64,000 nt of DNA, taken from the IMG/VR virus record IMGVR_UViG_3300025871_000494, one strand, 5' to 3'. The notes under the pieces are model-generated. The model had not been told where the DNA came from. It saw nothing but the letters and a program-made list of their open reading frames with translations, and made no database searches. Below, piece after piece: positions 210 through 64,000 of this stretch; position 1 is the stretch's first letter, and each line of letters begins with the position of its first letter. Source of the DNA: an uncultured virus (IMG/VR IMGVR_UViG_3300025871_000494). Its lineage: Duplodnaviria > Heunggongvirae > Uroviricota > Caudoviricetes. The position numbers and the translations under genes are program-made.

Positions 210-545
210 ATGCAAAGAAGATTATCTAATGTACTTTATTCTGTTACTAGTTCTACTGGATCTTATGTTCAATTAAATTTTCCAGACGGATCTTTATCTT
301 ACTTTGATTCTACCATTAAACAAGAATTTGATAATGTTCTAATAGATAATATTGGAGACGGTGATATTTGAGTATCTTTTAGACCCGGATTAGTACTAAC
401 CTCCAGTATTACAGGAGCTAAAACTTTAGTTTCTAAAGATAGTTTATATATACAAGAAAGTATACTTCATATTACTATCTATTTTATACAAAGTTCAACA
501 GTAGAACTTATTTTACTTCTAGATCTGAATAATGAAGATTGTTAA
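210..545 (+). pseudogene. Small putative virion protein interrupted by one in-frame TGA (369-371)
   Basis: ATG 210; MQRRLSNVLYSVTSSTGSY...IDNIGDGDI*VSFRPGLVLTSSITGAKTL...NEDC*; frame stays open and protein-like on both sides of the TGA. Confidence 0.5.
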
Positions 546-663
546 GAAAGATAATATTAAAATTTCTCTTATTAGAAAAGAAGAACAAATAGATCTTCGT
601 ATTGTTTTATCCTCAAATAATAGTATTATTATTTGTAATCATGAAAATATAGTGTATGTATAA
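532..663 (+). CDS. Hypothetical 43-aa protein
   Basis: ATG 532 to TAA 661-663, fills the gap between neighbouring ORFs with tight spacing. Confidence 0.35.
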   Translation: MKIVKKDNIKISLIRKEEQIDLRIVLSSNNSIIICNHENIVYV

Positions 664-665
664 AT

Positions 666-3077
666 ATGGCACTTACAAGCATTTATCATGAAAGTCTAAC
701 TACTAGTTGTGGTATTCATATACCATATTCTTTTGAATATACTTCTAGAACTACTAGAGAAGCTGATATCAGTTTCGATTCTACTGATATTGGAAAACTA
801 GCACGACAAACTGATAACAATTCTTTGTGGATGCTTATTGCAATTTCACCTATAACTTGGTCTGCTATAACTGCAGAAACAGGTGCTCCGGGTGATATGT
901 TTAAGTATATTTACGATACCAACAACGATGGTATTGTAGATAATTCACATCAATTAGAAGGGCATAATTCTACTTTTTTTACTTCCACAGGACACTAGCA
1001 TTATAGAAATGCTGGACCAATAACAACCCCGGTATTGACAGATAATGGCGATGGTACAGCAACTATATCATCTACAGATGTAGTATTATTCAATAATACT
1101 GATTTTGTGGAACCTGCAGCAAAATATACTATTGCTGGCGATACTTTTACTTTTACAGAAGGATCGGAAGAATATGTAGTTGCAGACTATAATTCTGGTT
1201 CACCAATTATGAGAGTAGAAACAAATAAAGCTCTTATAAATGGAAGTTCTATTGTAACATTGCTTATTTGTTGGAGGCAAGACTCAGTAATACATTCTGT
1301 TGATGAAGATGCATATGGAATGGGTCTTGCAAATAAAATAAATAGAATGTTATATAATACTCAATCTTATAATAGAAGTATCGATGGTGGGTTAATTTTA
1401 TCTGAAAGTTCTTCTCCTATAGCTAGAACAATCTTGGTCAGTGCATCTATTGTATATGCAGCTGCTACACCTTATGTAGTTTCTACATTTAATTCAAGTA
1501 CAGATTTATTAACTCAAGTTAATCATGTTGGAGGAAATTGGACATATACTAATGTTTCTGTTTACGATAATCAATATTATGATAACGGTACAAATGCTGT
1601 TTTAATGACAGATAATAGATTTTCTAATAGATTCTTTTATAGAAGCATTGGCGATGTTAAACAGGTATTTTACACATTAGGACAGATTCAATATTATAAC
1701 ACAGATGAAACTTATCAAGAACTCCCACCAACTCCTCCTTTAGTACTAAGAGATCATTGTGTTTATATTGGAAGAATCGCAATTGGAAAAAATAGTAGTA
1801 CTGGCGTAGTACACCCTGCTTTTGATCATATAACAGAATTACCAGAATATATATTTTATGATAGCTCTGGGGTATTCACAGCACCAACTATAGTTGGTAG
1901 TAGCACAGGGATAATAACAGTCGGTCAAGGAGAATATCTATTATATTCAGATTCAACATATACAGAAAATACTTTAAATAAGTATACTATTTCTGGTGAT
2001 ACTTTTACAATACCAGATGATGGTATTAATCATTATATAGTAGCTAATTATAATTCTGGTTCACCACAATTAGAATTAATAGATGATATGGAGGCTATAA
2101 ATCAAAGTGATATAATACCGGTTCTTAGTGTATTTAATCTATTAGGAACAATTTTGTATATCTTTTGGGATGAAATGGCCAAGGGATTATCTAATAAATT
2201 ATGTGATAGATTAGTAAAAACAGAACAGTTTACTGTAGAAAAAGGTGGGTTAATACTATCTGAAGTTGCAACTAGACTAGTAAATATAACTGAGGGTAGA
2301 ATTTGGTATGGAGCAGCATATTTAGATTTACCAGAAGTGCAATCTAATGTAGCAGGTCAATATATAGCTCTTTGGTATCATAGTAGCGGTACGTGGACAA
2401 GAACAACGTCTACTACTTATAATAATACACAATACGATAATGGAACAAATTTAGTTACTCTTACAAATAATAGATATGCTGTTAACTGGATTTATAGGGG
2501 ATTTTCGGCAGATCCAGTAAATGTTGTTCAACGACCAGTATCAGTTTTAGGACAAGGTGATTATACATTAGAACAAGCAGTAGCAAGTCTAGAACCAGAT
2601 CCTTTACCACCAGCTATACAAAATTTTTGTGTTTTAGTCGGAAAAATAATTGTTAAAAAAGGTGATAGTACCGCGACAGTAATTATGCCATTAGCGCAAG
2701 AAACTACTCTAAGTAGTGTATTTCCACATAATGGTTTACCTGGATTACAAGGTGGGGCAATTGATGAATATTATTATTTAACAGCAGCAGAATATACAGC
2801 ATTAGGGCATTTATCGTTTAATATTACAACACAAACAACCACCTATACAATATTAAATACTGATGATGTAATTTTGTGTAATGGTACATTTACAGCTACA
2901 CTACCAGCAGCAACAGGAACAGGTAAAGTATTTCATATTAAAAACATAGGAACAGGAGTTATTACAGTAGCTGGTAATGGAACTGAAACTATAGATAATG
3001 AATTAACACAAACTGTGAATAGTTATGAAAATTTGCAGGTTATAGATGGTTCTTCCGGAAATTGGTATATATTATAA
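666..3077 (+). CDS. Tail-fibre-like virion protein, split by one in-frame TAG (996-998) into the track's 666..998 and 1035..3077 ORFs
   Basis: Both ORFs are in the same frame with no other stop between them; GDMFKYIYDTNNDGIVD...GH*H fibre-type motif; internal ~286-aa duplication; C-terminal TLPAATGTGKVFHIKN...GTETID domain common in phage fibres. Confidence 0.65.
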
Positions 3078-5417: not shown

Positions 5418-6032
5418 ATGTCAACTTATAAAGGCGTAATTAGATTCATATCAGAAACCAGCGAAATAGCTTTAGTAGAAGAAACACCACTTGTTCAAGA
5501 TCAAACAATTGCATCTACTGAATTAGCATCTACTGGTGCGGTAACATGGGAAGGTACACTTCAACCAATTATAAATGAAAATTCTCTTATTATTAAGATA
5601 GCTGGAACAGAAGCCCCTCATGCAGAGTATGCATTAACCACATCGACAGGTAGAAAAATTTATACAAGCACTGGTGCTGGGTATATTGCTGCAGACGGAT
5701 TACTATATACTGCATCTGGTTCTTATGATATGAATAACTGTACTGCATTATATGGAACTGCATTTGAATTAACATCAGAAAATATTCTAGATAAAGTAAC
5801 AGGAACGATAGTACTTAACTTTGCTGTTGCTAGTGCACCAACTGCTGGGCAAGAAGTTCGTGTTGATTATACAAGAGATTATTTCAACGAGACAATAGGA
5901 TATACAAGAACTAGAATGCTACGCGGTGATTTTTCAGATCTAAGCGTTGATGATATAATTTATTATGATTATTCTGAAGGCGCAAGCGAAGAAGAATTCA
6001 CAGTAGATGTCGAGCGTCCTGGCCAAGCTTAA
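5418..6032 (+). CDS. Putative virion structural protein
   Basis: AAGGAG RBS; Thr/Gly-rich; TGTIVLNF..AP..GQEVRVDY motif typical of phage structural Ig-like domains. Confidence 0.5.
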   Translation: MSTYKGVIRFISETSEIALVEETPLVQDQTIASTELASTGAVTWEGTLQPIINENSLIIKIAGTEAPHAEYALTTSTGRKIYTSTGAGYIAADGLLYTASGSYDMNNCTALYGTAFELTSENILDKVTGTIVLNFAVASAPTAGQEVRVDYTRDYFNETIGYTRTRMLRGDFSDLSVDDIIYYDYSEGASEEEFTVDVERPGQA

Positions 6033-8385: not shown

Positions 8386-10146
8386 ATGGCATTACGATTT
8401 ACTAGAGCTAGTGAACAATATTTATACTCTGCATTAAGTGTTAATAGAGTACCTATGACTATTTCGTTGTGGGTTAGACGTGCATCTTTAGCATATTGGT
8501 GTACATTAGCAGGTGTAGGAGATGTAGATCAAGAACGTCAATATCAATGTATACAAACTGCAGATGACCAGATACGATCTATTGGATGGGCTGGTGGATC
8601 TGGGTATACTTCTACACATTCTGGTAATCCTGGTACAACAAATTGGTACCATTGTGTAGTAGTTTTTGTAAGTGATAGCATAACTTTTTATTTAGATAAC
8701 GAAGCACAAACACCTGGGGCATGGACAGCAGGATCAATTAGTATAGATCAAATAAGAATAGGAGCTAATTGTTCTTCTACTTTTTACGACTATGCAGATG
8801 ATTATATAGAGCATGTTGCAGTGTGGGATGTTGCTTTATCAACTGATGAAATAGCTGATCTATATAATTGTGACGTAAATCCTCTTGATATACAATCTGA
8901 TCATCTTTTAACATATACTCCTTTAATAGATGATATGACAGATGAATCCGGTAATCTTACCTGGACGGCAGTTAATATGTCGTCTCCATCTTACTCTACT
9001 TCAGGAATAGAATATCCTGCAAGCAGTGGTAGTTCTTGTACACTTACTTATAATGGAAATGGTAATACTTCAGGATCAGTACCTACCGATGCAAATTCAC
9101 CTTATGAATCTGGAGCAACAGTAACAGTATTAGGAAATACTGGAAGCCTGGCAAAAACTAATTATACCTTTGGTGGTTGGCAAACAACCTCAACAGGTGG
9201 TACTCATTATGATGCTAATGATACATTTGTTATATCAAATAATACTACGCTATATGCAGATTGGACAGCCACCTATCAATATAGAACAATAAATCATACT
9301 AATTATGATCCTTCAAGTTACACTAATGCTGAAATTTTAAAAGCTGCAGCAAAGAAAGTATACTTTGAACATGCTTCTACTGGTCAAGATATTGTAGGAG
9401 ATTCAACCACAAATTCAACTACTGGTAATAACTATGACGATTCTGCAAATTGTGGTTTAGCTCTGTTATATGCAGAAAATAATAGATATCTTTGTGATAG
9501 AGATTCTGCAGAATCAGCCAATGATTACACTTGGTTTTCAACACATACAGGTTTACAGGATAATAACCGTGGAAATCCTACTCCTGCTACTAAAATAAGT
9601 GGATTCGTTGAGATGTCAGCTAATATGCGCGGTGCTATTGATATTGCAATGTGGAAATATTGCTGGATAGATGTTTGGCCTGAAACTTCTGGTTATATTT
9701 CTGATGGTGCAGCAGCGGCTGCATCCGATATTGAGGATATAGAAGCATTTGAAGCAGCAAATCCAAGTATAACTGTTGTTTGGTGGACAATGCCTCTTCA
9801 AGATGATGCAAGTTATGCTGCTAGAGAAGCATATAATTCTGCAATTAGAACTTACTGTTTAGATCATGCAAAATGGTTAATAGATATTGCTGATATAGAA
9901 TGTTATAATACTTCTAATGTTAAGCAAGTAGATGGAAATGGTAGAGAAATAGCAGAAACTTCATATATGAGAGCAGATGGTGGACATCTTGGTACAGATG
10001 GAAGACTGAGAATGGGAAAAGCATATTGGTCACTTTTAGCTGCTATTGCAAATGAAAATTTAAATCCTACTACATATAAGAAAGAAATAATATTTGAGAC
10101 TATCTCTTCTATGAAGAAATTTATATGTATAAAACGAGCAATTTAA
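8386..10146 (+). CDS. Multidomain virion protein: LamG + Listeria-Bacteroides (InlB B) repeat + SGNH-hydrolase-like domain
   Basis: TISLWVR...IEHVAVWDVALSTDEIADLY; TLTYNGNG...NYTFGGW...TTLYADW; VYFEHASTG...REAYNSAIR...DGGHL. Confidence 0.65.
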   Translation: MALRFTRASEQYLYSALSVNRVPMTISLWVRRASLAYWCTLAGVGDVDQERQYQCIQTADDQIRSIGWAGGSGYTSTHSGNPGTTNWYHCVVVFVSDSITFYLDNEAQTPGAWTAGSISIDQIRIGANCSSTFYDYADDYIEHVAVWDVALSTDEIADLYNCDVNPLDIQSDHLLTYTPLIDDMTDESGNLTWTAVNMSSPSYSTSGIEYPASSGSSCTLTYNGNGNTSGSVPTDANSPYESGATVTVLGNTGSLAKTNYTFGGWQTTSTGGTHYDANDTFVISNNTTLYADWTATYQYRTINHTNYDPSSYTNAEILKAAAKKVYFEHASTGQDIVGDSTTNSTTGNNYDDSANCGLALLYAENNRYLCDRDSAESANDYTWFSTHTGLQDNNRGNPTPATKISGFVEMSANMRGAIDIAMWKYCWIDVWPETSGYISDGAAAAASDIEDIEAFEAANPSITVVWWTMPLQDDASYAAREAYNSAIRTYCLDHAKWLIDIADIECYNTSNVKQVDGNGREIAETSYMRADGGHLGTDGRLRMGKAYWSLLAAIANENLNPTTYKKEIIFETISSMKKFICIKRAI

Positions 10147-10227: not shown

Positions 10228-11133
10228 ATGATATTCCCACTAAAATACAATACAGCCAGTCAAGAAGTTCCATTAGGATTCTTTTTAGACACATCTACTG
10301 GAAACATAGAACAAACAAGTTTAACTATAGCAAATACTGATATAAAGTTGTGGAAATCAGGTGCTACTACTTTAGCAAATAAAAATAGCGGTGGTGCAAC
10401 ACATATTTCAAATGGTATTTATTATTGTGTATTAGATGCAACAGATACTAATACGTATGGGCCATTAGAAATTTTTATACATGTTTCTGGTGCATTAGCA
10501 TTTCATAAGGTATGTACAGTTATAAACTCTGATGCATATGATGCATTAATGAGTGCTTCTTCTGGATCTATTAGATCTACAGTAACTGCAATGAGTGCAG
10601 GAGTAATAACTTCTACTGCAATAGCAGATGAGTTATTTTATACCTCAGATCAAATTTCTCAAGATGTTTGGGAATATACTAATAGAACTTTAACAAGTTC
10701 AGGAACAGCTGCTATTGATTATACCCAAGTAGCAAACGCCGTATGGGATGAATTATTATCTCTTCATACAGTAAGTGGTTCTGCAGGTAAACAACTCTCA
10801 TCTACAGTAACAAGTTCTGGTGCTGTATATGTAAATATTGCAGGAGCAGAAATAGCAGATGCGGTTTGGAATGCAGAAACAGCTACATATAATGTAGCTG
10901 GATCGATGGGTAGAGCTTTAACAAGTACCGGAACTGCAGTTATAGATGCTTCAGATGTATGGAATTATGGAACTAGAACATTAACATCAAGTACTGGAAA
11001 TGCTACTCTTGCTAATCAAGAAATTATTATAAATCATCTTACAGACATTAAAGGTGATGGATGGACAGATGAAGATTTAGTAGCAATTATGACTGCTATA
11101 GAAAACGGAACTTGGGGTGGATTTGGAGTATAA
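10228..11133 (+). CDS. Virion structural protein with repeated (A/D)VW motifs
   Basis: QDVWEYTNRTLT, NAVWDE, DAVWNA, SDVWNYGTRTLT repeats, common in phage structural proteins. Confidence 0.55.
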   Translation: MIFPLKYNTASQEVPLGFFLDTSTGNIEQTSLTIANTDIKLWKSGATTLANKNSGGATHISNGIYYCVLDATDTNTYGPLEIFIHVSGALAFHKVCTVINSDAYDALMSASSGSIRSTVTAMSAGVITSTAIADELFYTSDQISQDVWEYTNRTLTSSGTAAIDYTQVANAVWDELLSLHTVSGSAGKQLSSTVTSSGAVYVNIAGAEIADAVWNAETATYNVAGSMGRALTSTGTAVIDASDVWNYGTRTLTSSTGNATLANQEIIINHLTDIKGDGWTDEDLVAIMTAIENGTWGGFGV

Positions 11134-45844: not shown

Positions 45845-45848
45845 ATAT

Positions 45849-46652: not shown

Positions 46653-46654
46653 TA

Positions 46655-48333: not shown

Positions 48334-48342
48334 GAGAATATA

Positions 48343-48912: not shown

Positions 48913-48914
48913 TT

Positions 48915-49814: not shown

Positions 49815-49815
49815 A

Positions 49816-52328: not shown

Positions 52329-52331
52329 TAA

Positions 52332-53396
52332 ATGAAAAAAATTCTAATTTTAGGTGGCTGTGGATTCGTGGGTGCTAACTTATCTCTTTACTTTGCGGAA
52401 AAAGGATATAAAGTGACTGCTTTTGATAATTTAGCAAGAAGAGGTTCAGAATATAATTTAGATGACTTCAAGAACAAAGGCGTAAAGTTTGTTCACGGTG
52501 ATATCCGGTGTAAAGAAGATTTTGATAATCTTGGAACTTTTGACGCTATTTGTGAATGTAGTGCACAACCTTCTGCTATTGATGGATATAATAACCCATA
52601 TTATGATTTTTCTAATAATACCCTTGGATTATTTAATGTTCTAGAATTTGCTAGAAAACAAGAGAATAAACCTGCTGTCATCTTTTGGTCAACAAATAAA
52701 GTATATAGTGGAGATAAAATCAATTCTTTTGAATTGTATGAATCTGATACACGATACAGATGGATCCTACAAGAAAGTTCTACTAAAGGATGGGATTCTA
52801 GATATGGTTTTTCGAATGAATTCAGCATCGATGGTGGACAACATTCTATTTATGGAATGAGTAAAGTAATGTCTGATCTTGCCTGTCAAGAATATTTCGA
52901 TGCCTTTGGTGTTAAAACAGTTGTAAATAGATTTTCTTGTTTGGCAGGACCGCGACAATGGGGTAAAAGTGCACAAGGTTGGGTTGCCTGGTGGGCTATT
53001 GCAGCTATGTTTAATCTACCATTAGTGTATATTGGATGGAAAGGAAAACAAGTAAGAGATGCTCTTTTCATTGACGATATTTGTAAGTTAGTTGAAATGG
53101 AAATTGATAGTATAGATAAAGTTAAAGGACAGGTTTTTAATATTGGTGGTGGAAAAGATATTAGTCTATCACTTATTGAAGCAACTTCTTTAGTAGAAAG
53201 AGAATTTAACAGAAAAATGAAGATTTCTATTATAGAAGAACCAAGGAAAGCTGATCATGTTATTTATATTTCTGATATCAGAAAAATAAAAGAAGCAATT
53301 GGTTGGGAACCTAAAATTGGTGTAGAAGAAGGTTATCAGCAAATTATTCGATGGGTAACAAATAATGTAGAACTTCTTACTAAATTATATCTATAA
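52332..53396 (+). CDS. rfbE: CDP-paratose/tyvelose 2-epimerase-like NAD-dependent epimerase
   Basis: GGCGFVG, DNLARRG, STNKVY, SIYGMSK, QGWVAWW, GKQVRD. Confidence 0.75.
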   Translation: MKKILILGGCGFVGANLSLYFAEKGYKVTAFDNLARRGSEYNLDDFKNKGVKFVHGDIRCKEDFDNLGTFDAICECSAQPSAIDGYNNPYYDFSNNTLGLFNVLEFARKQENKPAVIFWSTNKVYSGDKINSFELYESDTRYRWILQESSTKGWDSRYGFSNEFSIDGGQHSIYGMSKVMSDLACQEYFDAFGVKTVVNRFSCLAGPRQWGKSAQGWVAWWAIAAMFNLPLVYIGWKGKQVRDALFIDDICKLVEMEIDSIDKVKGQVFNIGGGKDISLSLIEATSLVEREFNRKMKISIIEEPRKADHVIYISDIRKIKEAIGWEPKIGVEEGYQQIIRWVTNNVELLTKLYL

Positions 53397-53405
53397 GGTA
53401 TTGTA

Positions 53406-54065
53406 ATGACAAATGTAGTTTTTTGTATAACTATGTATAATGAAGTTAATACTGTTCAGTTTAATATTAATACTATTAAAAAACAATTCTTCGGATCTAA
53501 AATAATAGTAATTCAATCAGAATCTGATCGGAAGATAGAAGGTGCCGATATCTATGAAGTATTGCCTAACTTAGCTGGGGCAGTTCCTATTCATGAATTA
53601 CCTGCTGTAGCAGTAACGAGAAATTATAATTTAGCTTTTTCTAAATTATATAGTACTTATTTTAGTGCTCCTTATATAGTCGCTATAACTGGAGATACAT
53701 TGATTAGCGATATTAAAGGATTAGATAGAATTTACAGACAAATGTTAGATAATAAAAAAGTATTAGCTGTATCACAAGCTATAGGACAAGATTTTCATAG
53801 CTCAACTTCTAACCCACCGGTCATTTGCGGTGGAAGGTATCAATTTGATGGAATTTCAGATTTTATGCCGCAATTTTTTATTGTAGAAGGAAATTTTGCA
53901 TATAAAACTAAAGTATTTTCAAATACGCAAATAACTAATAAATATACTACAGAACAATGTTTAGGTGATGAATTTTGTAAACACGGTTCTTTTAAAGATC
54001 AAGTATTGGTTTTGTCTAAAACAGCATATGGTTTTTCTGATGGTATTAAATACCAAACTAAATGA
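53406..54065 (+). CDS. Hypothetical protein, possible GT-A-like
   Basis: VVFCITMYNE start, ITGD, PQFF...EQCLG; lies inside the glycan operon. Confidence 0.4.
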   Translation: MTNVVFCITMYNEVNTVQFNINTIKKQFFGSKIIVIQSESDRKIEGADIYEVLPNLAGAVPIHELPAVAVTRNYNLAFSKLYSTYFSAPYIVAITGDTLISDIKGLDRIYRQMLDNKKVLAVSQAIGQDFHSSTSNPPVICGGRYQFDGISDFMPQFFIVEGNFAYKTKVFSNTQITNKYTTEQCLGDEFCKHGSFKDQVLVLSKTAYGFSDGIKYQTK

Positions 54066-54688
54066 TTAAATGTATAATATTTGATTTAGATGGAGTCTTA
54101 TGTGATCTAGTACAAGTACATAGACACGCATTGGATTCTGCATTACTAGAAATTTGTGGGTATACTATTTCGGAATATGAATTTTGGAGATATTATAATG
54201 GTATTCCTTCAAATGTTAAACTACAAATGCTTGTTAATAGGGGAATTCTAGATCCAAAAGATAAGGAAAAAGTATGGAAATTAAAACAAGATAATACCAT
54301 AAATGCAATTAAATCTTGTTTATCCTTAGATACACAAAAAATAGAATTACATACATATCTAAGAAGTAAAAACTATAAATTAATTTGTGTTTCTAACTCT
54401 ATTAGAAACACCATAGAATTAGCTTTAAGGCAAACAGGTCAGTTGGAATTTATGGAGTTTTTTCTGGGGAATGAAGATTTTGGTATAAAACCTAAACCAG
54501 ATCCTTATTGTTATTGTCTGGCTATAGAAAAAATAAAATTAAATACGCAAGAATGCTTGATAATAGAAGATTCTGAAAAAGGAATAACTGCGGCTATTAA
54601 ATCTGGTGCGCATGTTTTAGAAGTTAAGAATCCAAAGTATGTTACAATAGAAAACATTGAACGGAAGGTTAAGAATGCAAACATCTGA
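54062..54688 (+). CDS. HAD-family phosphatase
   Basis: FDLDGVL, VSNS, KPKPDP, IIEDS..G..AA..SG. Confidence 0.9.
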   Translation: MIKCIIFDLDGVLCDLVQVHRHALDSALLEICGYTISEYEFWRYYNGIPSNVKLQMLVNRGILDPKDKEKVWKLKQDNTINAIKSCLSLDTQKIELHTYLRSKNYKLICVSNSIRNTIELALRQTGQLEFMEFFLGNEDFGIKPKPDPYCYCLAIEKIKLNTQECLIIEDSEKGITAAIKSGAHVLEVKNPKYVTIENIERKVKNANI

Positions 54689-55388
54689 AGAATTTAAGTA
54701 TACACAAATGCAAAAAAACTGGTATGAAACTAATGCTAGAGCAAGTTATTATACAGATGGAAAATGCTTAGAAGATCATATCGTAGGAAATTTTCCAAAT
54801 CAAGAAAAATTTCCATATGAACAATGGCTATTTAAATATTATATACCTTCTAAAGAGCATATCTGCTACGAATATGGATGTGGACCAGGAAGACAGATTA
54901 GAAGAATTTTTAATTTATTTAAGCGGGTAGATGGCGTTGATATTTCACAAAAGAATCTGGATAATGCAAAACAATATATAGGATCTTCATATAATGGAAT
55001 TTTAAAAGTAACAGATGGGACACAAGTTCCTTTAGAAGATAAATATGATTTTTGTTATTCTGTCATTTGCTTACAACATATTCCTTGCTATTCTATTAGA
55101 AGAAAAATACTAGAAAATATGCTAGAAAGTTTAAAACCTGGTGGAAGAATAGCAATTCAACTTGCTTTTGGCCCATCTATGAATGGAACACCTACCTTTG
55201 GTTATACAGAAAATTTTTATGAAGCTACTACTACTAATGGGAGACTAGATTGTAGAGTGGATACAAGACAAGAAGTTATTCTAGATTTTTTAGATATAGG
55301 TTTTAAAGATGTTACTACAGAATTAAGTAACACAGTAGATGATCATCATCCTTGTTGGATATGGATTTATGGACAGAAACAGATTTGA
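54675..55388 (+). CDS. Class I SAM-dependent methyltransferase
   Basis: YEYGCGPGR, VDGVDIS, YDFCYSVICLQHI, LKPGG; start ATG 54675. Confidence 0.85.
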   Translation: MQTSEEFKYTQMQKNWYETNARASYYTDGKCLEDHIVGNFPNQEKFPYEQWLFKYYIPSKEHICYEYGCGPGRQIRRIFNLFKRVDGVDISQKNLDNAKQYIGSSYNGILKVTDGTQVPLEDKYDFCYSVICLQHIPCYSIRRKILENMLESLKPGGRIAIQLAFGPSMNGTPTFGYTENFYEATTTNGRLDCRVDTRQEVILDFLDIGFKDVTTELSNTVDDHHPCWIWIYGQKQI

Positions 55389-56010
55389 CGACCATTATAC
55401 AGAATGGCGTTCTAAAAGAATAGCTGCTATTGAGAAATATTTTACTAAAGAATTTTTCCAAGGTAAAACATTAGTAGAATTAGGTGCAGGATTTGGTGAT
55501 ATTGGATATCATTTTTCTACCTTAGGTTCAGCTGTAACATGTATAGAAGGTAGAAAAGATAATCTTGAGTATATACAATCTACTTATCAAAATATTACTG
55601 CACTACAAAAAGATTTAGACATCGAAAAATTTGAAATAGAACCAGTAGACATTATTATAAATATGGGGTTGTTATACCATTTAAAAGATCCTATTTATCT
55701 TTTACACACTTCTTGTAAGTTTTGTAAATATATGATTCTAGAAACAGAAGTAGTGGATAGTTACGATCCTTCTAAAATTATATATTGGAAAGATGTAAAA
55801 GAAGATTATGATCAATCGTTGCATGACGTAGGTTGTAGAATTTCTGTTGGTATGATAGAGCATATTTTAAAAGAATATAAATTTAAGTTTGAAAGGTTGG
55901 AAGATTCTTCCTGTAATTCTGGCCCGCATAAATATGATTGGATTATTAGAAATACAGGTACTTGGGAATCCGGTCAAAGAAAATTATGGTTTTGTACTAA
56001 GGAGGAGTAA
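55369..56010 (+). CDS. Class I SAM-dependent methyltransferase
   Basis: VELGAGFG, IEGR..N, MGLLYHL.DP; start ATG 55369. Confidence 0.85.
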   Translation: MDRNRFDDHYTEWRSKRIAAIEKYFTKEFFQGKTLVELGAGFGDIGYHFSTLGSAVTCIEGRKDNLEYIQSTYQNITALQKDLDIEKFEIEPVDIIINMGLLYHLKDPIYLLHTSCKFCKYMILETEVVDSYDPSKIIYWKDVKEDYDQSLHDVGCRISVGMIEHILKEYKFKFERLEDSSCNSGPHKYDWIIRNTGTWESGQRKLWFCTKEE

Positions 56011-56011
56011 A

Positions 56012-56797
56012 ATGCATATAGTTATACCTATGGCGGGACGTGGGCAACGATTTATAGATGCAGGATATAAAGATCCAAAACCTTTTATTCCTATTAAAAG
56101 TAAACCTATGATCGAATGGGTTATTAAAAACTTGGATTTTACCACAATATGGACTACTAAAGGATATGATTTTCATAAACCTACTTTTACTTTTATAGTT
56201 CAAGAAGATCATTGCAAGAAATTTCAGTTTGATCTCAGAATTAAAGAAGCTATTACAGCAGCATGTGGTAGAGATATAGCAGATAAAACAAATATTATAC
56301 AAATAAATTATATTACTGAAGGTGCTGCTTGTACTGTTCTGAAAGCAAGGGATATAATTAATACAGAAGAATCTCTATTAATTGCAAATAGTGATCAATA
56401 TATAGACTGGACTGTGTATTTATTTATGCAAGCAATAGCAGATACAAAAGCAGATGGATGTATTCCTGTTTTTCATGGAACACATCCTAAATGGTCGTAT
56501 GCAGAATTAGATAATAAAGGATTTGTTACCAGAGTAAGAGAAAAAGAACCTATTTCTACTTATGCTACTGTAGGTATTTATTGGTTTAAACATGGTTCAG
56601 ATTTTGTTTGGGCTGCTGACGAAATGATTAATAAAAATTTAAGAGTAAATAATGAATTTTATGTTTGTCCTGTATATAATGAATTGATAGTACCAAAAAA
56701 TCAAAAAGTAGTTGCATTTCCTATTCCGACATGCGCAATGCACGGATTAGGTACACCAGAGGATTTGGAGGAGTTTAAGAAATTATATGAAAACTAG
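56012..56797 (+). CDS. Sugar-phosphate nucleotidyltransferase (GT-A/NTP_transferase)
   Basis: IPMAGRGQRF...PKP, TEGAACTVL, IANSDQ, EK..IS..ATVGIY, EFYV.PVYN, GLGTPEDL; GGAGG RBS before ATG 56012. Confidence 0.85.
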   Translation: MHIVIPMAGRGQRFIDAGYKDPKPFIPIKSKPMIEWVIKNLDFTTIWTTKGYDFHKPTFTFIVQEDHCKKFQFDLRIKEAITAACGRDIADKTNIIQINYITEGAACTVLKARDIINTEESLLIANSDQYIDWTVYLFMQAIADTKADGCIPVFHGTHPKWSYAELDNKGFVTRVREKEPISTYATVGIYWFKHGSDFVWAADEMINKNLRVNNEFYVCPVYNELIVPKNQKVVAFPIPTCAMHGLGTPEDLEEFKKLYEN

Positions 56798-57107
56798 TAA
56801 AATTCAGGAAATGATTCGAGGTTGGTTTATTGGAAACTTTTCTCCTACTGTTTGGAAAACTGAGGATTTTGAAGTAGCAATTCAACGATATAAAGCTGGT
56901 GATACAGAAACACCACATATCCATCGAGTAGCTACTGAAATTAATGTAGTAACAGAAGGTGCTATAGAAATGAATGGAAAAGCTTTTATGGTAGACGATA
57001 TAGTAATCATAGAACCAGGCGAAAAAGCACATTTTAAAGCACTTACAGATGCAGCTGTTGTAGTAGTAAAAGTCCCATCTTTGATAGGAGATAAATATAC
57101 AGACTAA
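56787..57107 (+). CDS. Cupin-domain protein
   Basis: GWFIGNFSP, H.H...TEIN, I.PGE, VVVKVPS. Confidence 0.75.
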   Translation: MKTSKIQEMIRGWFIGNFSPTVWKTEDFEVAIQRYKAGDTETPHIHRVATEINVVTEGAIEMNGKAFMVDDIVIIEPGEKAHFKALTDAAVVVVKVPSLIGDKYTD

Positions 57108-57682
57108 TGGGAGAATTATACCTTCATAATTTAGATAGATATAAATGTAATATTTTTATTGAAACTGGTACTGGTAAAGGTACTGGTCTAAAACATGCAT
57201 TACAATTTCCTTTTAAAACTTTTTATTCAATAGAAATCAATAAAGAATTGTATGAGTACTGTAAAACTAGATATATTTCAACTAAATTAACTTTATTAAA
57301 TATGACTTCTTTGGAAGGTTTAGAACAAATATTACCTGCTATATCTAAAGAAGATAAGATACTATTTTGGTTAGATGCACACTTTCCTGGAGCTGATTTT
57401 CAACTGGGATCGTATGATGATGAAATAGAAGAAACTATTAAGCTACCCTTACAAACAGAAATTGAATTAATTTATAAATATAGAAAAGATTGTAAAGATA
57501 CTTTTATTATAGATGATCTTCAGTTGTTTGAAGAAGGATTATACGAATTGAAAATGCCAGATAACCTTACAAGTAAGTATAGAAAAAGTAATAAATTTAT
57601 ATATGATTTATTTCAAACTACTCATAATATAACTAAAGATTATAGACATCAAGGATTTTTAATTTTGAGGCCAAAAGAATGA
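57107..57682 (+). CDS. Methyltransferase-fold hypothetical protein
   Basis: FIETGT..G, SIEI, FWLDAH, IIDD. Confidence 0.55.
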   Translation: MGELYLHNLDRYKCNIFIETGTGKGTGLKHALQFPFKTFYSIEINKELYEYCKTRYISTKLTLLNMTSLEGLEQILPAISKEDKILFWLDAHFPGADFQLGSYDDEIEETIKLPLQTEIELIYKYRKDCKDTFIIDDLQLFEEGLYELKMPDNLTSKYRKSNKFIYDLFQTTHNITKDYRHQGFLILRPKE

Positions 57683-58113
57683 TACTTATTGCTCATAGAG
57701 GTAATCTTACAAGTCCAGATAAGTATAATGAAAATCATCCAGACTATATTTTAAAGGCATTAGATTCTGGATATGCCGTAGAAATTGATGTATGGTATGA
57801 AAATGGTAAGTTTTATCTGGGCCACGATGGACCTTGGCTGACTATTGACGAAAAGTTTTTATTAACCAAAGGCTTATGGTGTCATGCAAAAACACCTAAA
57901 ACTCTAGATATGCTTCTTGTACTGAGAACCACCTGTTTTTTTCATAATACAGATGCCTGTACATTAACTTCGAATAAATACATTTGGACATTTCCAAATA
58001 AGGAACTAACACCTAATTCAATTATAGTTATACAAGGGTATCCAAAAGATATTAATATTAATTCATATTCTTGTGCAGGAATATGCAGTGATTATATTAA
58101 AGAATTCAAATAA
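57679..58113 (+). CDS. Short GDPD/PLC-like phosphodiesterase
   Basis: IAHRGN, EN, VEIDVW, LGHD, GICSD. Confidence 0.75.
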   Translation: MILIAHRGNLTSPDKYNENHPDYILKALDSGYAVEIDVWYENGKFYLGHDGPWLTIDEKFLLTKGLWCHAKTPKTLDMLLVLRTTCFFHNTDACTLTSNKYIWTFPNKELTPNSIIVIQGYPKDININSYSCAGICSDYIKEFK

Positions 58114-58115
58114 AT

Positions 58116-58829
58116 ATGAATAATATTAGCTTACTAATAATAAATAGAAATTATAGTAATTTTATTAAAGAAACATTTGATTCAATACTTAAACAAAGTA
58201 AATTACCAAAAGAAATAATTATTATAGATGATTATTCCACCGATTCTTCTTTTTCTAAGTATATAGAATTACAAAACTATATTTATGATAATAAACTTAA
58301 TATAGATCTTACTATTACGTATAACTCAAGTAAAAAAGGTGTAATTGTCTGTAGAAATATTGCTGTTAATCACTCTTCTTGTAATTATTTATGTTTTATA
58401 GATGCAGACGATTATGTATCGTCTACCTATCTAGAAGATACCTCTAGAATATTAGATAATAATCAAGACGTAGGTATTGTTTATACAGACTTCATATTAT
58501 TCGATAAATTTGCTCCTCCAAGATATTATGATGTACCACAGGAAGAAAAAGGAGGAGAAATAGAAAAAGGATACTTTAAAAGAATGTTTCCTGAATTTAA
58601 TGAAGAATCTAAAAAATTACTACAAAATAGAAATTTTATTCATGGAGGTTCTCTTTTTAGAAGAAAATGCTTCGAAGATATTTCTGGATATATAAAATCT
58701 GATATACCGGAAGATTATAGTTTGTATAAAAGAATAGTAAACTTTGGATGGAATGCAAAAAAATGTAATACTTGTCTTTTATTTTATAGGCAACATTCTA
58801 ATAAACAATTTAATATTACTGGTGAATAA
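58116..58829 (+). CDS. GT2 glycosyltransferase
   Basis: IIIDDYSTD, FIDADD, PEDY, YRQH. Confidence 0.85.
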   Translation: MNNISLLIINRNYSNFIKETFDSILKQSKLPKEIIIIDDYSTDSSFSKYIELQNYIYDNKLNIDLTITYNSSKKGVIVCRNIAVNHSSCNYLCFIDADDYVSSTYLEDTSRILDNNQDVGIVYTDFILFDKFAPPRYYDVPQEEKGGEIEKGYFKRMFPEFNEESKKLLQNRNFIHGGSLFRRKCFEDISGYIKSDIPEDYSLYKRIVNFGWNAKKCNTCLLFYRQHSNKQFNITGE

Positions 58830-59708
58830 ATGATTTTACTTATAGGAAATAAAGGATTACTAGGAACAGAACTAGAATTGTATCTTAGATCACATTCTAT
58901 TGCGTATGTTCCATATGATAAGGAAAGCGATATAGGTATACTAGACAATTTACATAATATTTGTAGAAATAAAGAAATAGATTGGATTATTAATTGTTCT
59001 GGTATCTCTAATGCAGATTTAGCAGAGAATAATCCTTCTTTAGCTTACAAAGTAAATGTAGAAGGGATAAAAAATATATGTGAAATAGCGAAACAGTATA
59101 ATAGCAAACTTATTCATATTTCAGATGTTCAAATATTTAATGGTAAAAAAGATACGGAATATTCTGAATTTGATATACCAGATCCTATTAATATATATGG
59201 AAAAACTAAACTAGAAGGAGAAAATATTATAAAAAGCTCCTTAGAAAAATATTTTATTATAAGATCCTCTTGGTTATATGGAAAATATGGTATTACTTTT
59301 ATATCTACCCTATTTAAACTTATAAGTAAACAAACACCAAAAATTCAAATCGTTGATGATGAAACAGGGAGTCCTACTTATACAAAAGATTTAGTACAAG
59401 GTATTTTTAGAATTATAGAATCTAATTCTACTAGATATGGTATATATAACTTTAGTAATAGAAACAAGACAGATTGGTTTGAGTTTGCTAAAGAAGTTTA
59501 TAGATTAATAATGATTTATGAAGTTTTACCTAGAACATTACAAAGATTTGTGACTATTGAACCTATTACTAGCAGTGAATATAAAACATCTGCAAAAAGA
59601 TTAGTAAATTCTTATCTAAATAGTAGAAATTTTGAGAATACCTTCGGAGTTCAGATAAGGCCTTGGAAAATAGCATTAGAAGATTTCATATCAACCTTAA
59701 AGAAGTGA
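58830..59708 (+). CDS. rmlD: dTDP-4-dehydrorhamnose reductase family protein (divergent active-site segment)
   Basis: GNKGLLG, P.P.NIYGKTKLEGE, RSSWLYG, D..GSPTYT.DL, A.R..NS.L. Confidence 0.8.
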   Translation: MILLIGNKGLLGTELELYLRSHSIAYVPYDKESDIGILDNLHNICRNKEIDWIINCSGISNADLAENNPSLAYKVNVEGIKNICEIAKQYNSKLIHISDVQIFNGKKDTEYSEFDIPDPINIYGKTKLEGENIIKSSLEKYFIIRSSWLYGKYGITFISTLFKLISKQTPKIQIVDDETGSPTYTKDLVQGIFRIIESNSTRYGIYNFSNRNKTDWFEFAKEVYRLIMIYEVLPRTLQRFVTIEPITSSEYKTSAKRLVNSYLNSRNFENTFGVQIRPWKIALEDFISTLKK

Positions 59709-59712
59709 AAGC

Positions 59713-60639
59713 ATGAATGAACAAAACAAAATAATCGATCCTATCGTTGAAAAGTGGAAAGAAAATTACAAAAGAAATCTAGAAGAAGGTATTTTTACTA
59801 GACCAAATTCTAAATATCTTAAGTTTTTGATTAATAATAGTTTTTATAATAAGATACCTTGCGTTTTAGTAGCAGCAGGGCCATCTCTAGAAAAAAATAT
59901 ACATATACTAAAACAGTATTCTGAAAATTATTTAATTATATGTGCAGATGTGGTTTTGTATAGATTAATGGAAGAAGGAATTCATCCAGATTTTGTTTGT
60001 ACAATAGATCCTAGTGATTCTTTCTCTAGATTTTGGAAGGGGGTGGATACCTCTAATTGTAATTTTATTTGCCCAACTACTGTAAGTTCTATTGCATTAA
60101 ATGAATGGAAAGGTAATGTATTCTTTTTTAATCAAACAGATAAACCTGGATCTGAAAAACAAAAAGTTCTATCTGAAATAACCACATATACGAGCGGTGC
60201 TGGTGATTTAGAAAATAATTACTTTGTAGGTGCTACAATGTTTTTATTTTCTAAAATATTTAATCCTAGTTCTGTTATTTTTGTTGGATATGATTTTGGA
60301 TTTACAGATAATAAACCGTATTGTAATGGATTTCTAGAAAGAAAACTTTATGATACTACGGGTGTTGGAATGGATGTTCTTATTAAAAGAGAACTCAATC
60401 ACGATACAATTATAGATATTGATACATATTATATAAAAACAACTAAATTATTACTTCTTTATAGAAATACTTTATTAGATCTTATCTTTCAAAACAAGAT
60501 AAAATGTATAAATTCTACAGAAGGTGGTATTTTAACTGAAATTCTAAGAATGCCGTTAGAAGATTCAGTTAAAGAATTTTGTGTTAAACCCATTAAAAAA
60601 GTTCCAGTTAATGAAATACCAAAAAGAAATCGCAGATAA
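59713..60639 (+). CDS. Maf/DUF115 (MptE-like) family protein, candidate protein O-glycosyltransferase
   Basis: VAAGPSLEKNI, ICAD..L..L...GI.PDFVCT.D, IFVGYDF, INSTEGG. Confidence 0.8.
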   Translation: MNEQNKIIDPIVEKWKENYKRNLEEGIFTRPNSKYLKFLINNSFYNKIPCVLVAAGPSLEKNIHILKQYSENYLIICADVVLYRLMEEGIHPDFVCTIDPSDSFSRFWKGVDTSNCNFICPTTVSSIALNEWKGNVFFFNQTDKPGSEKQKVLSEITTYTSGAGDLENNYFVGATMFLFSKIFNPSSVIFVGYDFGFTDNKPYCNGFLERKLYDTTGVGMDVLIKRELNHDTIIDIDTYYIKTTKLLLLYRNTLLDLIFQNKIKCINSTEGGILTEILRMPLEDSVKEFCVKPIKKVPVNEIPKRNRR

Positions 60640-60708: not shown

Positions 60709-61938
60709 ATGAACCAATTATACTTCCCAGGAAGAGTAGTAGATTTATATAGTGAAGATTACCAGTATCTTCAAGATAATGTTTCTACAGAGGTATTAAA
60801 AATACTAAAAAGTATAGTATCTGGTGAACTTTCTTCTTCTATTATTAAAAACTTTGTTTTACGTGTAGATCCTTCCAATAATCTATATTTAGAAGTAACG
60901 CAAAATAGTGGTACTGGGTTAGTAATAACCAATAGTGGTCTTTTAATAGAATATAATTCAGATATTTCGAGTATTGCAGTATCAGATGCTACCTATGGAA
61001 CTGTTAATAATGTATATGCAAAGTGTTCATATGTATATGGATCATATAATAGAAAAACAGAAACTATTGTAGAAGGCGAGAAAAAAGCAGTAGATTTATA
61101 TGACGGAACGCTTATTTACAATAGAAAGATAGAAGATTTAGAAATTGTAGTATATACTGTTGCAGAATATAATGCTTTGACTGCCGCACAAAAAGCAGAG
61201 TTAGTATTTTTAGGTTCTACTATTGCACAAGGATCTGGTAATCCATTATTATCTGTTGATTTGAGTTCTGTAACGTATTTTGCTATAGATGTAGTAGAAT
61301 CAGAAATACCTGCAGGGGCAGAAGACGACGAATTTTATGGAACAGCAGATAACCTAGAAGAAGAACTTAATAGAATAAGAACAGAAATTAGAAATATTAA
61401 ACAATCACCTGATTGGGATACTTATCAGATAGGTATATCTGCATCAGACCCAGATATGAATAAACTGCATTTATCCGGTGTAGCACCTAATGTTTATGAA
61501 CAATTTGATTATGAATTAACAAGTAGCGGAACAGCTATTAGAATTAAGACGGGAAAAGCAATTGTAAATGGTGCTACTGTTATAACCTATTCTAATACAG
61601 ATTTTAATATTGTTGAACAAGGTCAAGTTTATATTGGTAATTATACAGCTAGAACTAATCCAGAAACACACATAGTAGGAAATACACAACCAGTAACATT
61701 TACTCTAGCTTATTCACCTGTAAGTAATGTACACTTAATAGAACAATCAAGCGGTAACGCTTTTATTGAGGGTGTAGACTATACTATAAATACCAGCACA
61801 GGCGAAGTTACAACTATCGTTGGCGGAAATATAATGAACGAAACGGTAGATTGTTATTATAGCTATCCTGGAAATAGATGTGATTTAATAGGAGTAAATA
61901 ATTCTGAATTTGAACGAAACGGTAGATTGTTATTATAG
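60709..61938 (+). CDS. Long tail fibre, N-terminal (baseplate-attachment) part; apparent stop is caused by a 76-bp duplication
   Basis: GGAG RBS; F.G.V......Q.LQ start; FIEGVDYTINTSTGEVT Ig-like motif; frame breaks at the duplicated segment. Confidence 0.65.
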   Translation: MNQLYFPGRVVDLYSEDYQYLQDNVSTEVLKILKSIVSGELSSSIIKNFVLRVDPSNNLYLEVTQNSGTGLVITNSGLLIEYNSDISSIAVSDATYGTVNNVYAKCSYVYGSYNRKTETIVEGEKKAVDLYDGTLIYNRKIEDLEIVVYTVAEYNALTAAQKAELVFLGSTIAQGSGNPLLSVDLSSVTYFAIDVVESEIPAGAEDDEFYGTADNLEEELNRIRTEIRNIKQSPDWDTYQIGISASDPDMNKLHLSGVAPNVYEQFDYELTSSGTAIRIKTGKAIVNGATVITYSNTDFNIVEQGQVYIGNYTARTNPETHIVGNTQPVTFTLAYSPVSNVHLIEQSSGNAFIEGVDYTINTSTGEVTTIVGGNIMNETVDCYYSYPGNRCDLIGVNNSEFERNGRLLL

Positions 61939-61986
61939 CTATCCTGGAAATAGATGTGATTTAATAGGAGTAAATAATTCTGAATT
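61835..61986 (+). repeat. Perfect 76-bp tandem duplication causing a frameshift
   Basis: 61835-61910 is identical to 61911-61986 (tgaacgaaacggtag...aattctgaatt). Confidence 0.95.
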
Positions 61987-64000
61987 AGTATATGAAATAG
62001 GAACAGGAGATCCTGCAGAAACTTCTAGTGTTCTAAGAGTAACAAGTACAGGTATTCTTCCTTTATGGATCCTTTACCTACAATCAGGAGAAACCAGCTT
62101 AGTAGATGCTAGGGTTATTGATGCTAGAACATATTTACAACCAGTAAAAGAAACTCGTCAGTTAGATTATTCAACTATTTCTCTATATCCTACCGATGGT
62201 AAAATATCCTTTACAGATTCGACCACAGGAGCAATATCCAGTACAGGTTATACTATAACTAGTACAGGTATTACAAGTACGGGGGTTTATTCTTATCTAA
62301 CAGTAACTAATAGCGTAGATATAACTTCATACATGTTTACTAGAGAAAACGATTTTGTGTGGATACTTTGTCGACCAGTAGTTACTACGTATTACCCAGT
62401 AATAGATGACACTGTATATTTAAGACTATCCTATGAGACCTCACCCGGTAGTGGTACTTTAGATGGTATTTCTACTATTAAACTACCAACAACTACTTTT
62501 GCTAGCAATATTTTCATACCATTACTTTTTAAAGATACTGAAATAGCAGAAGGTATTACTAGATTTAAAATCTCTATTTCTAGAGGATCTCAATTCGATT
62601 TTTCGTGTATTCTTATAGGAAATAGCGATTTATTCTATCAATCTTCTTTAATAGAAGGATTATTAAGTAACTTAGAGGCATACGTAAACCGTGGAGATAT
62701 TTCCACAAGTATATTTAGTAATATTTTTATTGGGCCAATGTCTTTTATTTCTAATATATCTAGCATTCATAATATTGCAATAGGACCTGCGTCTCTAACG
62801 GCTAATACCTTTGGTAACAAAAATATAGGTCTAGGTGCCAGTACTTTAATGGCAAACACCTTTGGAAGCAATAATATTGCAATGGGATTTCAAGCTTTGG
62901 GTGCAAACATTTCAGGGGATTCTAATATAGCTATTGGTCCTTCTACAATATCTCTAGGTGAGAATGCATCTTATAATATTGCTATGGGTGACGAAGCCTT
63001 AAGAAACTGCGGTGGTGATGCCACCCAAAACATTGCTTTGGGTTATCGAGCAATGCGTAGTAATTATTCAGGCAGATTTAATGTTGCAATTGGGAATTCT
63101 GCATTGTATTACAACACATATGGTTCGCATAATGTAGCAATAGGATCTAATGCCCTAGAACGCTTAGCATATAATGGTAGTACAGATAGATATAATGTAG
63201 CAATAGGATCTAGTGCACTAGGATTGCATAATGAGGGTGATTTAAATACTGCTGTAGGGTATGTATCTCTATATTCACACACAACTGGTAATTATAATAC
63301 TGCGATAGGATCTTATTCTCTTTATAGTAGTCAAAGCACACAAGGAAGTATTGGAATTGGATATTATGCTGGGTACTATAATACAAGTTCAAATAAATTA
63401 TTTGTTCATAATCAAGATACTGGTTCTTTAAGTGGTGATCTTTCTAGATCGCTTATAGTAGGTACCTTTGATAGTGTTTCTGCAAATCAAAATGTTACTA
63501 TTAATGGTTCTTTAAATGTTGGTCATAATGTTTCTATTGCTGGCGGTTTGGAAGTTGATAGAATTAATTGGACTTTTTTCTCACTTATTGCCAGGGAACT
63601 AACTATTTCGGGTAATGTCGCTTATCCAGGTTTATGTGCTTTAAATGGGACAGATGTTGCTCTTATAGATAGTAATATGGATAGATTACGCCGTTTTCGT
63701 TTTGATGGTCTTACTTGGACATCTATTGGTAGTGAATTAAATATTGCTCCTTCTGCTGAAGCTTATATATGTTCTTTAAATGAAACAGATGTTGCAGCAT
63801 GTGATTATACTTTTGGTATAAGAACATATAGATTCACCGGGACTACCTGGACAACAGTTGGTACTACATTATCAATATCTGGTGGTCTGGGACATTCTGC
63901 AATATGTTCTTTAAATGCAACAGACATTGCTATTACAGATGCTGTTTCCAATAGTTTAAGAACTTTTCGTTTTAATGGAACAACTTGGACATCTGTTGGT
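61910..64000 (+). CDS. Long tail fibre, C-terminal part (NxAIG beta-roll repeats then propeller-like repeats); runs off window; not in ORF track
   Basis: Frame open from 61910 to 64000: ...HNIAIG, NIAMG, FNVAIG, YNTAIG repeats; then C(A/S)LN.TD(V/I)A...R.(F/Y)RF.G.TWT.(I/V)G x3. Confidence 0.75.
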   Translation, partial: MNETVDCYYSYPGNRCDLIGVNNSELVYEIGTGDPAETSSVLRVTSTGILPLWILYLQSGETSLVDARVIDARTYLQPVKETRQLDYSTISLYPTDGKISFTDSTTGAISSTGYTITSTGITSTGVYSYLTVTNSVDITSYMFTRENDFVWILCRPVVTTYYPVIDDTVYLRLSYETSPGSGTLDGISTIKLPTTTFASNIFIPLLFKDTEIAEGITRFKISISRGSQFDFSCILIGNSDLFYQSSLIEGLLSNLEAYVNRGDISTSIFSNIFIGPMSFISNISSIHNIAIGPASLTANTFGNKNIGLGASTLMANTFGSNNIAMGFQALGANISGDSNIAIGPSTISLGENASYNIAMGDEALRNCGGDATQNIALGYRAMRSNYSGRFNVAIGNSALYYNTYGSHNVAIGSNALERLAYNGSTDRYNVAIGSSALGLHNEGDLNTAVGYVSLYSHTTGNYNTAIGSYSLYSSQSTQGSIGIGYYAGYYNTSSNKLFVHNQDTGSLSGDLSRSLIVGTFDSVSANQNVTINGSLNVGHNVSIAGGLEVDRINWTFFSLIARELTISGNVAYPGLCALNGTDVALIDSNMDRLRRFRFDGLTWTSIGSELNIAPSAEAYICSLNETDVAACDYTFGIRTYRFTGTTWTTVGTTLSISGGLGHSAICSLNATDIAITDAVSNSLRTFRFNGTTWTSVG

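Follow-up and report, generated by a model that had tools for sequence, protein, structure and literature searches.

TSTG, a four-residue motif enriched in the virion proteins of a clade of uncultured jumbo phages, as a candidate tag for phage-encoded O-glycosylation

The tetrapeptide Thr-Ser-Thr-Gly (TSTG) recurs far above expectation in the predicted virion proteins of the uncultured virus IMGVR_UViG_3300025871_000494. A stretch of 64,000 nucleotides (nt) of this virus, called the window here, was analysed. It has a GC content of about 30%, and all of its sizeable open reading frames (ORFs) are on the plus strand. We regard it as somewhat probable that TSTG is an acceptor tag for virion O-glycosylation encoded by the phage. 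A more specific version is put forward tentatively: TSTG on a beta-hairpin turn would be a portable O-glycosylation sequon, and a minimal Maf-like transferase of 308 amino acids (aa) would prime a strain-variable glycan on a dozen folded virion proteins. We infer the glycosylation of the tag, and likewise its reader enzyme, the residue modified and the role of the glycan. An IMG/VR record with terminal repeats (G001; 236,368 base pairs, bp; rated complete) contains the window at 99.6–99.9% identity, excluding two indels. On this match, the window is part of a jumbo phage of about 236 kilobases (kb), and the near-identical complete record G001 was used as a stand-in for its whole genome. The portal, protease, major capsid and tail genes of G001 are located in a virion-gene block at 150–236 kb.

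Four short ORFs nested in longer ones were dropped before counting, which left 62 ORFs and 20,798 aa. The six-frame translation gave 20 TSTG and 7 SSTG on the plus strand, and 0 TSTG and 2 SSTG on the minus strand. All of the 27 [TS]STG sites are inside the following ORFs.

210..371, plus strand, 53-aa ORF that may not be a real gene, without family match; SSTG at nt 249-260
666..998, plus strand, 110-aa protein; TSTG at residue 106 (nt 981-992)
1035..3077, plus strand, 680-aa tail-fibre-like protein (phrog_5668 tail fiber protein, 5.7e-18); SSTG at residues 254 and 289 (nt 1794, 1899)
5418..6032, plus strand, 204-aa virion-block protein; TSTG at residues 75 and 83 (nt 5640, 5664)
8386..10146, plus strand, 586-aa lectin-fold protein (Laminin_G_3 and Flg_new repeat); TSTG at residue 268 (nt 9187)
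10228..11133, plus strand, 301-aa protein; TSTG at residues 22 and 232, SSTG at 254 (nt 10291, 10921, 10987)
11137..11796, plus strand, 219-aa protein with a CarboxypepD_reg-like beta-sandwich; TSTG at residue 144 (nt 11566)
15627..16505, plus strand, 292-aa protein, the 'tail terminator' of the initial annotation (label unverified); TSTG at residues 233, 254 and 260 (nt 16323, 16386, 16404)
16607..18922, plus strand, 771-aa tail sheath (Atlas structure match to PF04984, template modelling score 0.88); TSTG at residue 173 (nt 17123)
32868..33509, plus strand, 213-aa baseplate-region protein; TSTG at residues 17 and 45 (nt 32916, 33000)
34999..36462, plus strand, 487-aa baseplate wedge J-like protein; TSTG at residues 268 and 282 (nt 35800, 35842)
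37749..39911, plus strand, 720-aa baseplate or fibre-adaptor protein; SSTG at residue 528, TSTG at 567, SSTG at 573 (nt 39330, 39447, 39465)
60709..61938, plus strand, front part of the long fibre, 409 aa; TSTG at residue 362 (nt 61792)
61910..64000, plus strand, continuation of the long fibre, open at the window end (phrog_4636 tail spike protein, 1.1e-37); TSTG at residues 45, 117 and 122 (nt 62042, 62258, 62273), SSTG at 110 (nt 62237)

The enrichment was measured with 2000 shuffles keeping the composition of each protein. The shuffle mean was 0.79 for TSTG (standard deviation 0.90, maximum 7), 0.78 for SSTG (maximum 5) and 1.57 for [TS]STG (maximum 7), and the observed counts of 20, 7 and 27 were reached in none of the shuffles. 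As a look-elsewhere control, every tetrapeptide seen at least 4 times was scored by Poisson statistics. TSTG was the top tetrapeptide (5.2e-21) and led the runner-up LTSS (4.5e-6) by 15 orders of magnitude; SSTG and TSSG each scored 1.8e-5. The seven TSSG sites (0.79 expected) are all in virion-block proteins (ORFs 3087, 10228, 16607, 32868 and 60709), and ORF 3087-4427 holds two TSSG and no [TS]STG. No STG was found in the presumed tube, the tape measure, the 1743-aa hub and the 508-aa protein, and no [TS]STG in the glycan enzymes or nucleases of the window. Only 0.14 [TS]STG are expected in the glycan enzymes, so their zero is uninformative. Five proteins presumed to belong to the inner or core parts (the 224-aa, tape-measure-like, tube-initiator-like, 1743-aa and 508-aa proteins) hold 0 of the 27 sites at a composition-weighted share of 0.207 (P = 0.002), a comparison in which the 'inner' labels are weak. 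The initial annotation had counted about 20 TSTG and 7 SSTG by hand, and the plus-strand ORFs hold exactly these numbers. Its list of motif-bearing proteins proved correct by ORF counting, and its rough chance estimate of about one TSTG agrees with the shuffle mean. The per-protein shuffle test that it had proposed gave the clear excess described above, and the absences that it had reported from the tube, tape measure and hub, and from the glycan enzymes and nucleases, were found again.

The codons of the sites match the background usage of the same proteins (AGY 38%, TCN 62%). Since the codons are background-like and both serine families are used, selection acts on the peptide and not on the DNA. 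The flanks of the window sites are no more alike than random positions in the same proteins (1.38 identities in 20, compared with 1.34). The exception is a small module common to ORFs 15627 and 37749, in which two sites share 5–7 of 20 flank residues. Beta-branched and hydrophobic residues are mildly over-represented at positions –2, –1, +1 and +2, with few Pro or Lys. These data bear on the simplest explanation, that the motif arises by chance, by composition, or from the copying of a repeated DNA or protein module from gene to gene. The motif-bearing proteins are rich in Thr, Ser and Gly, and the module of ORFs 15627 and 37749 would suit a copying event. However, the composition-keeping shuffles never exceeded 7 TSTG, the codons vary like the background, the flank similarity is that of random positions and the minus strand has no TSTG. 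Chance, composition, a DNA repeat and a shared module are thus refuted by the shuffles, the tetrapeptide ranking, the codon usage and the flank comparison, and we give this explanation almost no weight.

The motif was followed across the whole genome and its relatives. In G001, all of the 24 TSTG (24/24) are within the virion block at 150–236 kb. The first 150 kb (about 45,000 residues) has none, with an expectation estimated at well under one. TSTG is the second-ranked tetrapeptide of G001, after the repeat-derived VGSV. A search of IMG/VR with the capsid protein found relatives at 50–84% identity, and a search for close relatives with the sheath protein returned the same phage only. Five large related records (G003, G004, G005, G006 and G007) were compared whole, and TSTG ranks first in four of them.

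G006 (complete), TSTG 27 seen, 1.33 expected, top tetrapeptide
G005, TSTG 34 seen, 1.37 expected, top tetrapeptide
G003, TSTG 22 seen, 1.50 expected, top tetrapeptide
G007, TSTG 28 seen, 1.53 expected, top tetrapeptide
G004 (65%-complete fragment), TSTG 6 seen, outside its top six tetrapeptides

Other tetrapeptides hint at repeat families in two of these records: CRLN, QTFN, DQTF and TFNY are strongly enriched in G007 with 13–15 copies each, and G004 has 17 copies of MSKI and 5 copies of CPAW. Membership of the phages in the 'moraphage' lineage (PMC12619734) was considered and dropped, with no HSP70 in 5 records.

The nearest phage of a named collection is Virus Rctr197k, whose capsid protein is 37% identical. 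Its whole 197 kb holds 1 TSTG against 1.72 expected and is not enriched, and its virion block holds 0 against 0.77. A profile search found neither PF00535 nor PF01973 in it. The initial annotation had suggested comparing phages with and without the glycosyltransferase (GT) cluster. This contrast was obtained in part: a single, distant outgroup has neither the enzymes nor the enrichment, and no close relative is known to lack the enzymes. The J-like baseplate protein allowed a wider survey with 150 representative homologues. The 16 closest hold 14 TSTG against 0.79 expected, and the 134 more distant ones hold 13 against 3.90. Six of those 13 belong to P0022, P0024 and P0025 (about 30% identity) and are at the two turns of the clade (query residues 268 and 333). 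Judging from these homologues, the TSTG habit may extend somewhat beyond the sampled clade to a sister group.

The specificity of the motif was examined in counts pooled over six records, in which orthologous sites are counted repeatedly. TSTG was seen 141 times against 7.9 expected (about 18-fold). Only SSTG (36 against 7.6) and TSSG (42 against 7.6) were also raised, and every other single substitution of TSTG reached at most about 2.7-fold. The second position is Ser only and the fourth Gly only, with Thr or Ser at the first and third positions. Other turn-like xxxG tetrapeptides were not enriched (1362 seen, 1211 expected).

The sites are both conserved and mobile. In pairwise comparisons of orthologues, 461 of 705 site-pairs have no aligned counterpart. 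TSTG is kept in 95 of the 244 aligned cases (39%), compared with 7173 of 89,325 (8.0%) for control tetrapeptides in the same alignments. All 7 sequences compared for a 309-aa capsid-neighbour protein retain both of its TSTG sites, and some sites are invariant amid variable flanks. Other TSTG columns hold SSTG, TSSG, TENG, NSDG, ETDG or a gap in relatives. The orthologues of the 204-aa protein (ORF 5418) have TSTG at additional, different columns, and of the 28 sites in G007, 0–1 are in common with any other record. All three TSTG of the 292-aa protein are in a C-terminal extension absent from two orthologues of 237–238 aa, and the sheath site is within an insertion of about 280 aa (about residues 99–380) absent from orthologues of 453–458 aa. 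By these alignments, TSTG is conserved five times above background and has also been gained and lost repeatedly and independently. The claims of the initial annotation about origin hold up well here. The copies do differ in codons, with both TCN and AGY serine codons present; the motif is not a DNA repeat, as the minus-strand zero and the background-like codons indicate; and convergence among unrelated proteins is borne out by unrelated flanks and by column-by-column gains and losses in relatives.

To see where the sites lie in a fold, the J-like protein was modelled with AlphaFold2 from 91 sequences, with a mean predicted local distance difference test score (pLDDT) of 94.1. The model matches baseplate wedge chains of several contractile systems (e.g. 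8kea_d, 2e-17). In the model, TSTG 268-271 forms the hairpin turn that joins strand 258-268 to strand 271-273; TSTG 282-285 runs into strand 285-287. The modelled turns would fit a type I turn with a glycine bulge. For these two sites, the mapping on AlphaFold models proposed in the initial annotation placed the motif at beta-turns. A second model, of the 309-aa capsid-neighbour protein, was built from 7 sequences with a poor pLDDT of 44.6 and was not used as evidence; in its first ~100 residues (block means 59–82) the motif positions directly follow strands, in a model too poor to use. Surface exposure of the TSTG sites is suggested indirectly, by the modelled turns and by the lineage-specific add-on domains.

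A purely structural role should be considered at this point. TSTG could be the preferred type I turn with a glycine bulge in the beta-hairpins of this clade, needed for folding or assembly and left unmodified, and the glycan cluster would then serve another purpose, for example DNA or host-surface modification. The modelled sites are at tight turns, the flanks are rich in beta-branched and hydrophobic residues, and the aligned alternatives NSDG, TENG and ETDG are classical turn sequences ending in Gly. However, generic turn-like xxxG tetrapeptides are at their expected level, and turn physics alone does not predict Ser only at the second position with Thr or Ser only at the first and third. 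The homologous virion block of Rctr197k is free of the motif, and the distant J-like homologues mostly have gapped, variable loops or other residues at both TSTG columns. We therefore consider a purely structural turn unlikely. The sharp statistics of TSTG point to something that recognises this set of three hydroxyls and one glycine on the turns of virion proteins.

The candidate reader is found in the same late operon, in the two features below, the second of which is part of the first.

41184..60639, plus strand, 22 soluble glycan-enzyme ORFs within the baseplate/fibre module, same late operon
59713..60639, plus strand, 308-aa Maf-like (MptE-like, PF01973) protein, final gene of the cluster, immediately preceding the fibre gene

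The cluster encodes GT2 and GT4 glycosyltransferases, one of them a 967-aa protein in which two GT2 domains are fused to a GT4 domain, with about ten glycosyltransferase domains in all. It also encodes RmlA-, RmlB- and RmlD-like enzymes, a cupin, an AsnB-like amidotransferase, a radical SAM protein, two methyltransferases and a HAD hydrolase. No cluster protein has more than one hydrophobic stretch and no transmembrane segments were predicted. A flippase, a polymerase, a lipid-carrier transferase and an oligosaccharyltransferase were all absent from the cluster. Since no membrane proteins are predicted in the cluster, its product must be built on a soluble acceptor in the cytoplasm. These soluble glycosyltransferases are the only visible candidate readers of the motif, and an O-glycosylation tag is favoured for this reason. 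The cluster is located between the same two baseplate genes in G005 and G006, and two genes further on in G001, after the 720-aa protein. Of the 22 cluster ORFs of G001, 21 are also in G005 and 7 in G006. The set of G006 is smaller and different, with an epimerase, a TylF-like methyltransferase, a GT2, a GT2-GT9 fusion, a methyltransferase and the Maf-like gene. G003 stops at the place where the cluster would lie, and missing matches in the fragments G004 and G007 are uninformative. The 413-aa ORF 39946-41187 was rejected as a cluster member and is instead a paralogue of the 412-aa baseplate ORF 36501-37739. Both paralogues match one single orthologue in G003, G005 and G006, and where the glycan cluster is present in those relatives it directly follows this orthologue.

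Maf is the only bacterial family known to O-glycosylate, in the cytoplasm, folded proteins that later become extracellular. The 308-aa protein matches PF01973 at 1.2e-33 (116.7 bits, cut-off 34.6), and its orthologue in G006 at 5.1e-34. It also matches the PseD model NF050051 at 5.9e-18, over positions 202-466 of 640. Its best solved relative is PDB 5mu5 (3.1e-7, residues 260-368 of a 666-aa chain), which we take to be the Maf of Magnetospirillum. The nearest named homologue is a Maf-family glycosyltransferase of Clostridium (31% identity, 7.4e-19). The 56 closer homologues are metagenomic, 53 of them are 291–357 aa long and some are on contigs up to 252 kb. The gene is kept in G001, G005 and G006 at 44–48% identity and is also present in G009 and in the contig of L086. 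Within IMG/VR, relatives of it were found in members of the clade only, and there were none among cultured phages. From these matches, the Maf-like protein is a candidate TSTG-reading protein O-glycosyltransferase.

The tag could also be read by something else, such as a Ser/Thr kinase, a nucleotidyl- or phospho-transferase, or an assembly or decoration factor. The statistics demonstrate recognition and not chemistry, and the MptE fold of PF01973 includes archaeal pterin pyrophosphokinases, with a match of our protein to PDB 8sd5 at E = 0.0011. However, the protein is nearer to Maf in all three comparisons given above (5mu5, PseD and the Clostridium homologue), and its gene is embedded among the glycosyltransferase domains and sugar-nucleotide enzymes of the cluster. 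Such another reader is in our view rather improbable.

The glycosylation reading can be described as follows. T-S-T-G, with Ser tolerated at the first and third positions, would be a short recognition tag repeatedly selected on tight beta-turns of the outer virion proteins, namely the decoration and lectin-fold proteins, the sheath insertion, the baseplate wedge proteins and the fibres. The tag would be read by the phage's own cytoplasmic glycosylation machinery. Either the conserved 308-aa Maf-like enzyme or the neighbouring conserved multi-domain GT2 may add the first sugar to a hydroxyl residue of the folded protein, and the variable soluble glycosyltransferases of the operon may then extend it. 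The initial annotation had proposed a sequon-directed virion glycocalyx. Protein-level selection, convergence, confinement to virion proteins and a membrane-free cluster with a Maf-like gene speak for this proposal, and the glycocalyx itself is what we infer from the sequences.

Several results weigh against this reading. The PseD match scores 64.8 bits, far below the 670-bit cut-off, and the Maf-like protein corresponds to the central Maf domain only (308 aa compared with 640–666 aa). Maf enzymes are reported to act without a conserved sequon in the available part of PMC11339370. The major capsid protein (G001:166184-167374) and the presumed tube (window 21032-21706) have no [TS]STG. No NeuB nonulosonate synthase (PF03102) was found in any of the five records searched (0/5). 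A CTP_transf_3 cytidylyltransferase for cytidine monophosphate (CMP) sugars is present in G001 and G005, and not in the complete G006, nor in G003 and G009; a CMP-nonulosonate donor could still be supplied by the host. The sole outgroup, Rctr197k, is distant and GC-rich. The enzymes are not known to be missing from any member of the clade, and G003, G004 and G007 are only fragments. The placement of the motif in a confident model covers two sites only.

Other features of the window and of G001 are recorded here. Few window proteins were recognised by Pfam or PHROGs. Lectin-fold proteins are encoded at ORFs 7675 and 8386, and weak matches were obtained for a tape-measure (23123), a tube-initiator (25259) and a sheath-initiator (34562). 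The labels 'terminator', 'tube' and 'spike' of the initial annotation received no family support in the Pfam and PHROGs searches. The 'sheath' label of the 771-aa protein comes solely from Atlas structure matches to tail-sheath clusters, and PDB sequence searches with the 771-aa, 224-aa and 292-aa proteins gave no usable match. Two HNH or homing endonuclease genes are inside the virion module (12615-14039 and 19087-20913), the second of them (phrog_3339, 4.5e-104) between the sheath gene and the presumed tube gene. The window also encodes a 5'-3' deoxyribonucleotidase (NT5C), at 11809-12282. The long fibre gene carries a perfect 76-bp tandem duplication at 61835-61986 (2.0 copies, 100% match), which shifts the frame and thereby splits the fibre into ORFs 60709-61938 and 61910-64000+. 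G001 has one copy of the unit and a single fibre ORF of at least 1097 aa running to the record end, and its identity to the window drops to 92% downstream of the duplication. The duplication may reflect genuine variation or an error of assembly. About 2 kb of G001 (181054-183037) is missing from the window at 10667-10710, inside ORF 10228-11133, so that the protein is 301 aa here and 977 aa in G001. The enrichment of VGSV, NVSG and GSVG in G001 is probably due to a repeat in this extra segment. The cytidylyltransferase gene of G001 (74906-75610; CTP_transf_3, 1.3e-30) stands alone in the early region, far from the glycan cluster, and a TnpB/IS605 OrfB-like gene (L008; G001:77958-79217, minus strand) is near it.

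Phage virion glycosylation is, to our knowledge, known from very few systems. The closest parallel is given by the Maf flagellin O-glycosyltransferases of Magnetospirillum (5mu5) and Clostridium botulinum (PMC11339370, as far as it is available), which share the MptE-like catalytic domain. Both systems involve cytoplasmic Ser/Thr O-glycosylation of surface-exposed parts of a later extracellular polymer, which is putative in the phage. Unlike Maf, the phage protein has the central domain only, there is no flagellin, and no nonulosonate synthase was found. In contrast to the sequon-free action described in the accessible text of PMC11339370, the phage has a strict four-residue motif enriched across many unrelated proteins. 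According to a passage of PMC12619734 that cites the original work, mycobacteriophages encode glycosyltransferases proposed or shown to modify their own virion proteins, with glycans reported at the C-termini of capsid and tail-tube subunits. Compared with that description, our phage differs in that capsid and presumed tube are free of the motif. Its candidate sites are instead at internal beta-turns in a dozen other proteins, and it has a far larger set of enzymes. Virus-encoded non-canonical glycosylation at a short motif, NTXT, is described for Vp54 of Chlorovirus PBCV-1 in the available portion of PMC9614988. That system is N-linked and concerns a single capsid protein of a eukaryotic virus (PMC9614988, same portion), whereas the linkage proposed here is a putative O-linkage on many virion proteins of a bacteriophage. 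A literature search, with most subscription journals outside it, found no paper linking 'TSTG' to a phage and no defined phage sequon in work on phage virion glycosylation.

If the proposal is true, TSTG would be the first strict sequon for a Maf-type enzyme and would program the first sequon-directed glycan coat on a bacteriophage. A four-residue rule would then predict glycosites from sequence in a whole clade of uncultured jumbo phages. A glycan coat over the whole particle would be evolvable by sprinkling a tag over exposed turns, and the variable sugar cassette suggests an arms race over coat chemistry, if TSTG is the acceptor tag. A small soluble enzyme that acts with a short tag on folded cytoplasmic proteins would also be useful for glycoengineering. 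Even without a sugar, the roughly 18-fold enrichment and the convergent gains across unrelated proteins are a strong sign of an unknown recognition system in these phages.

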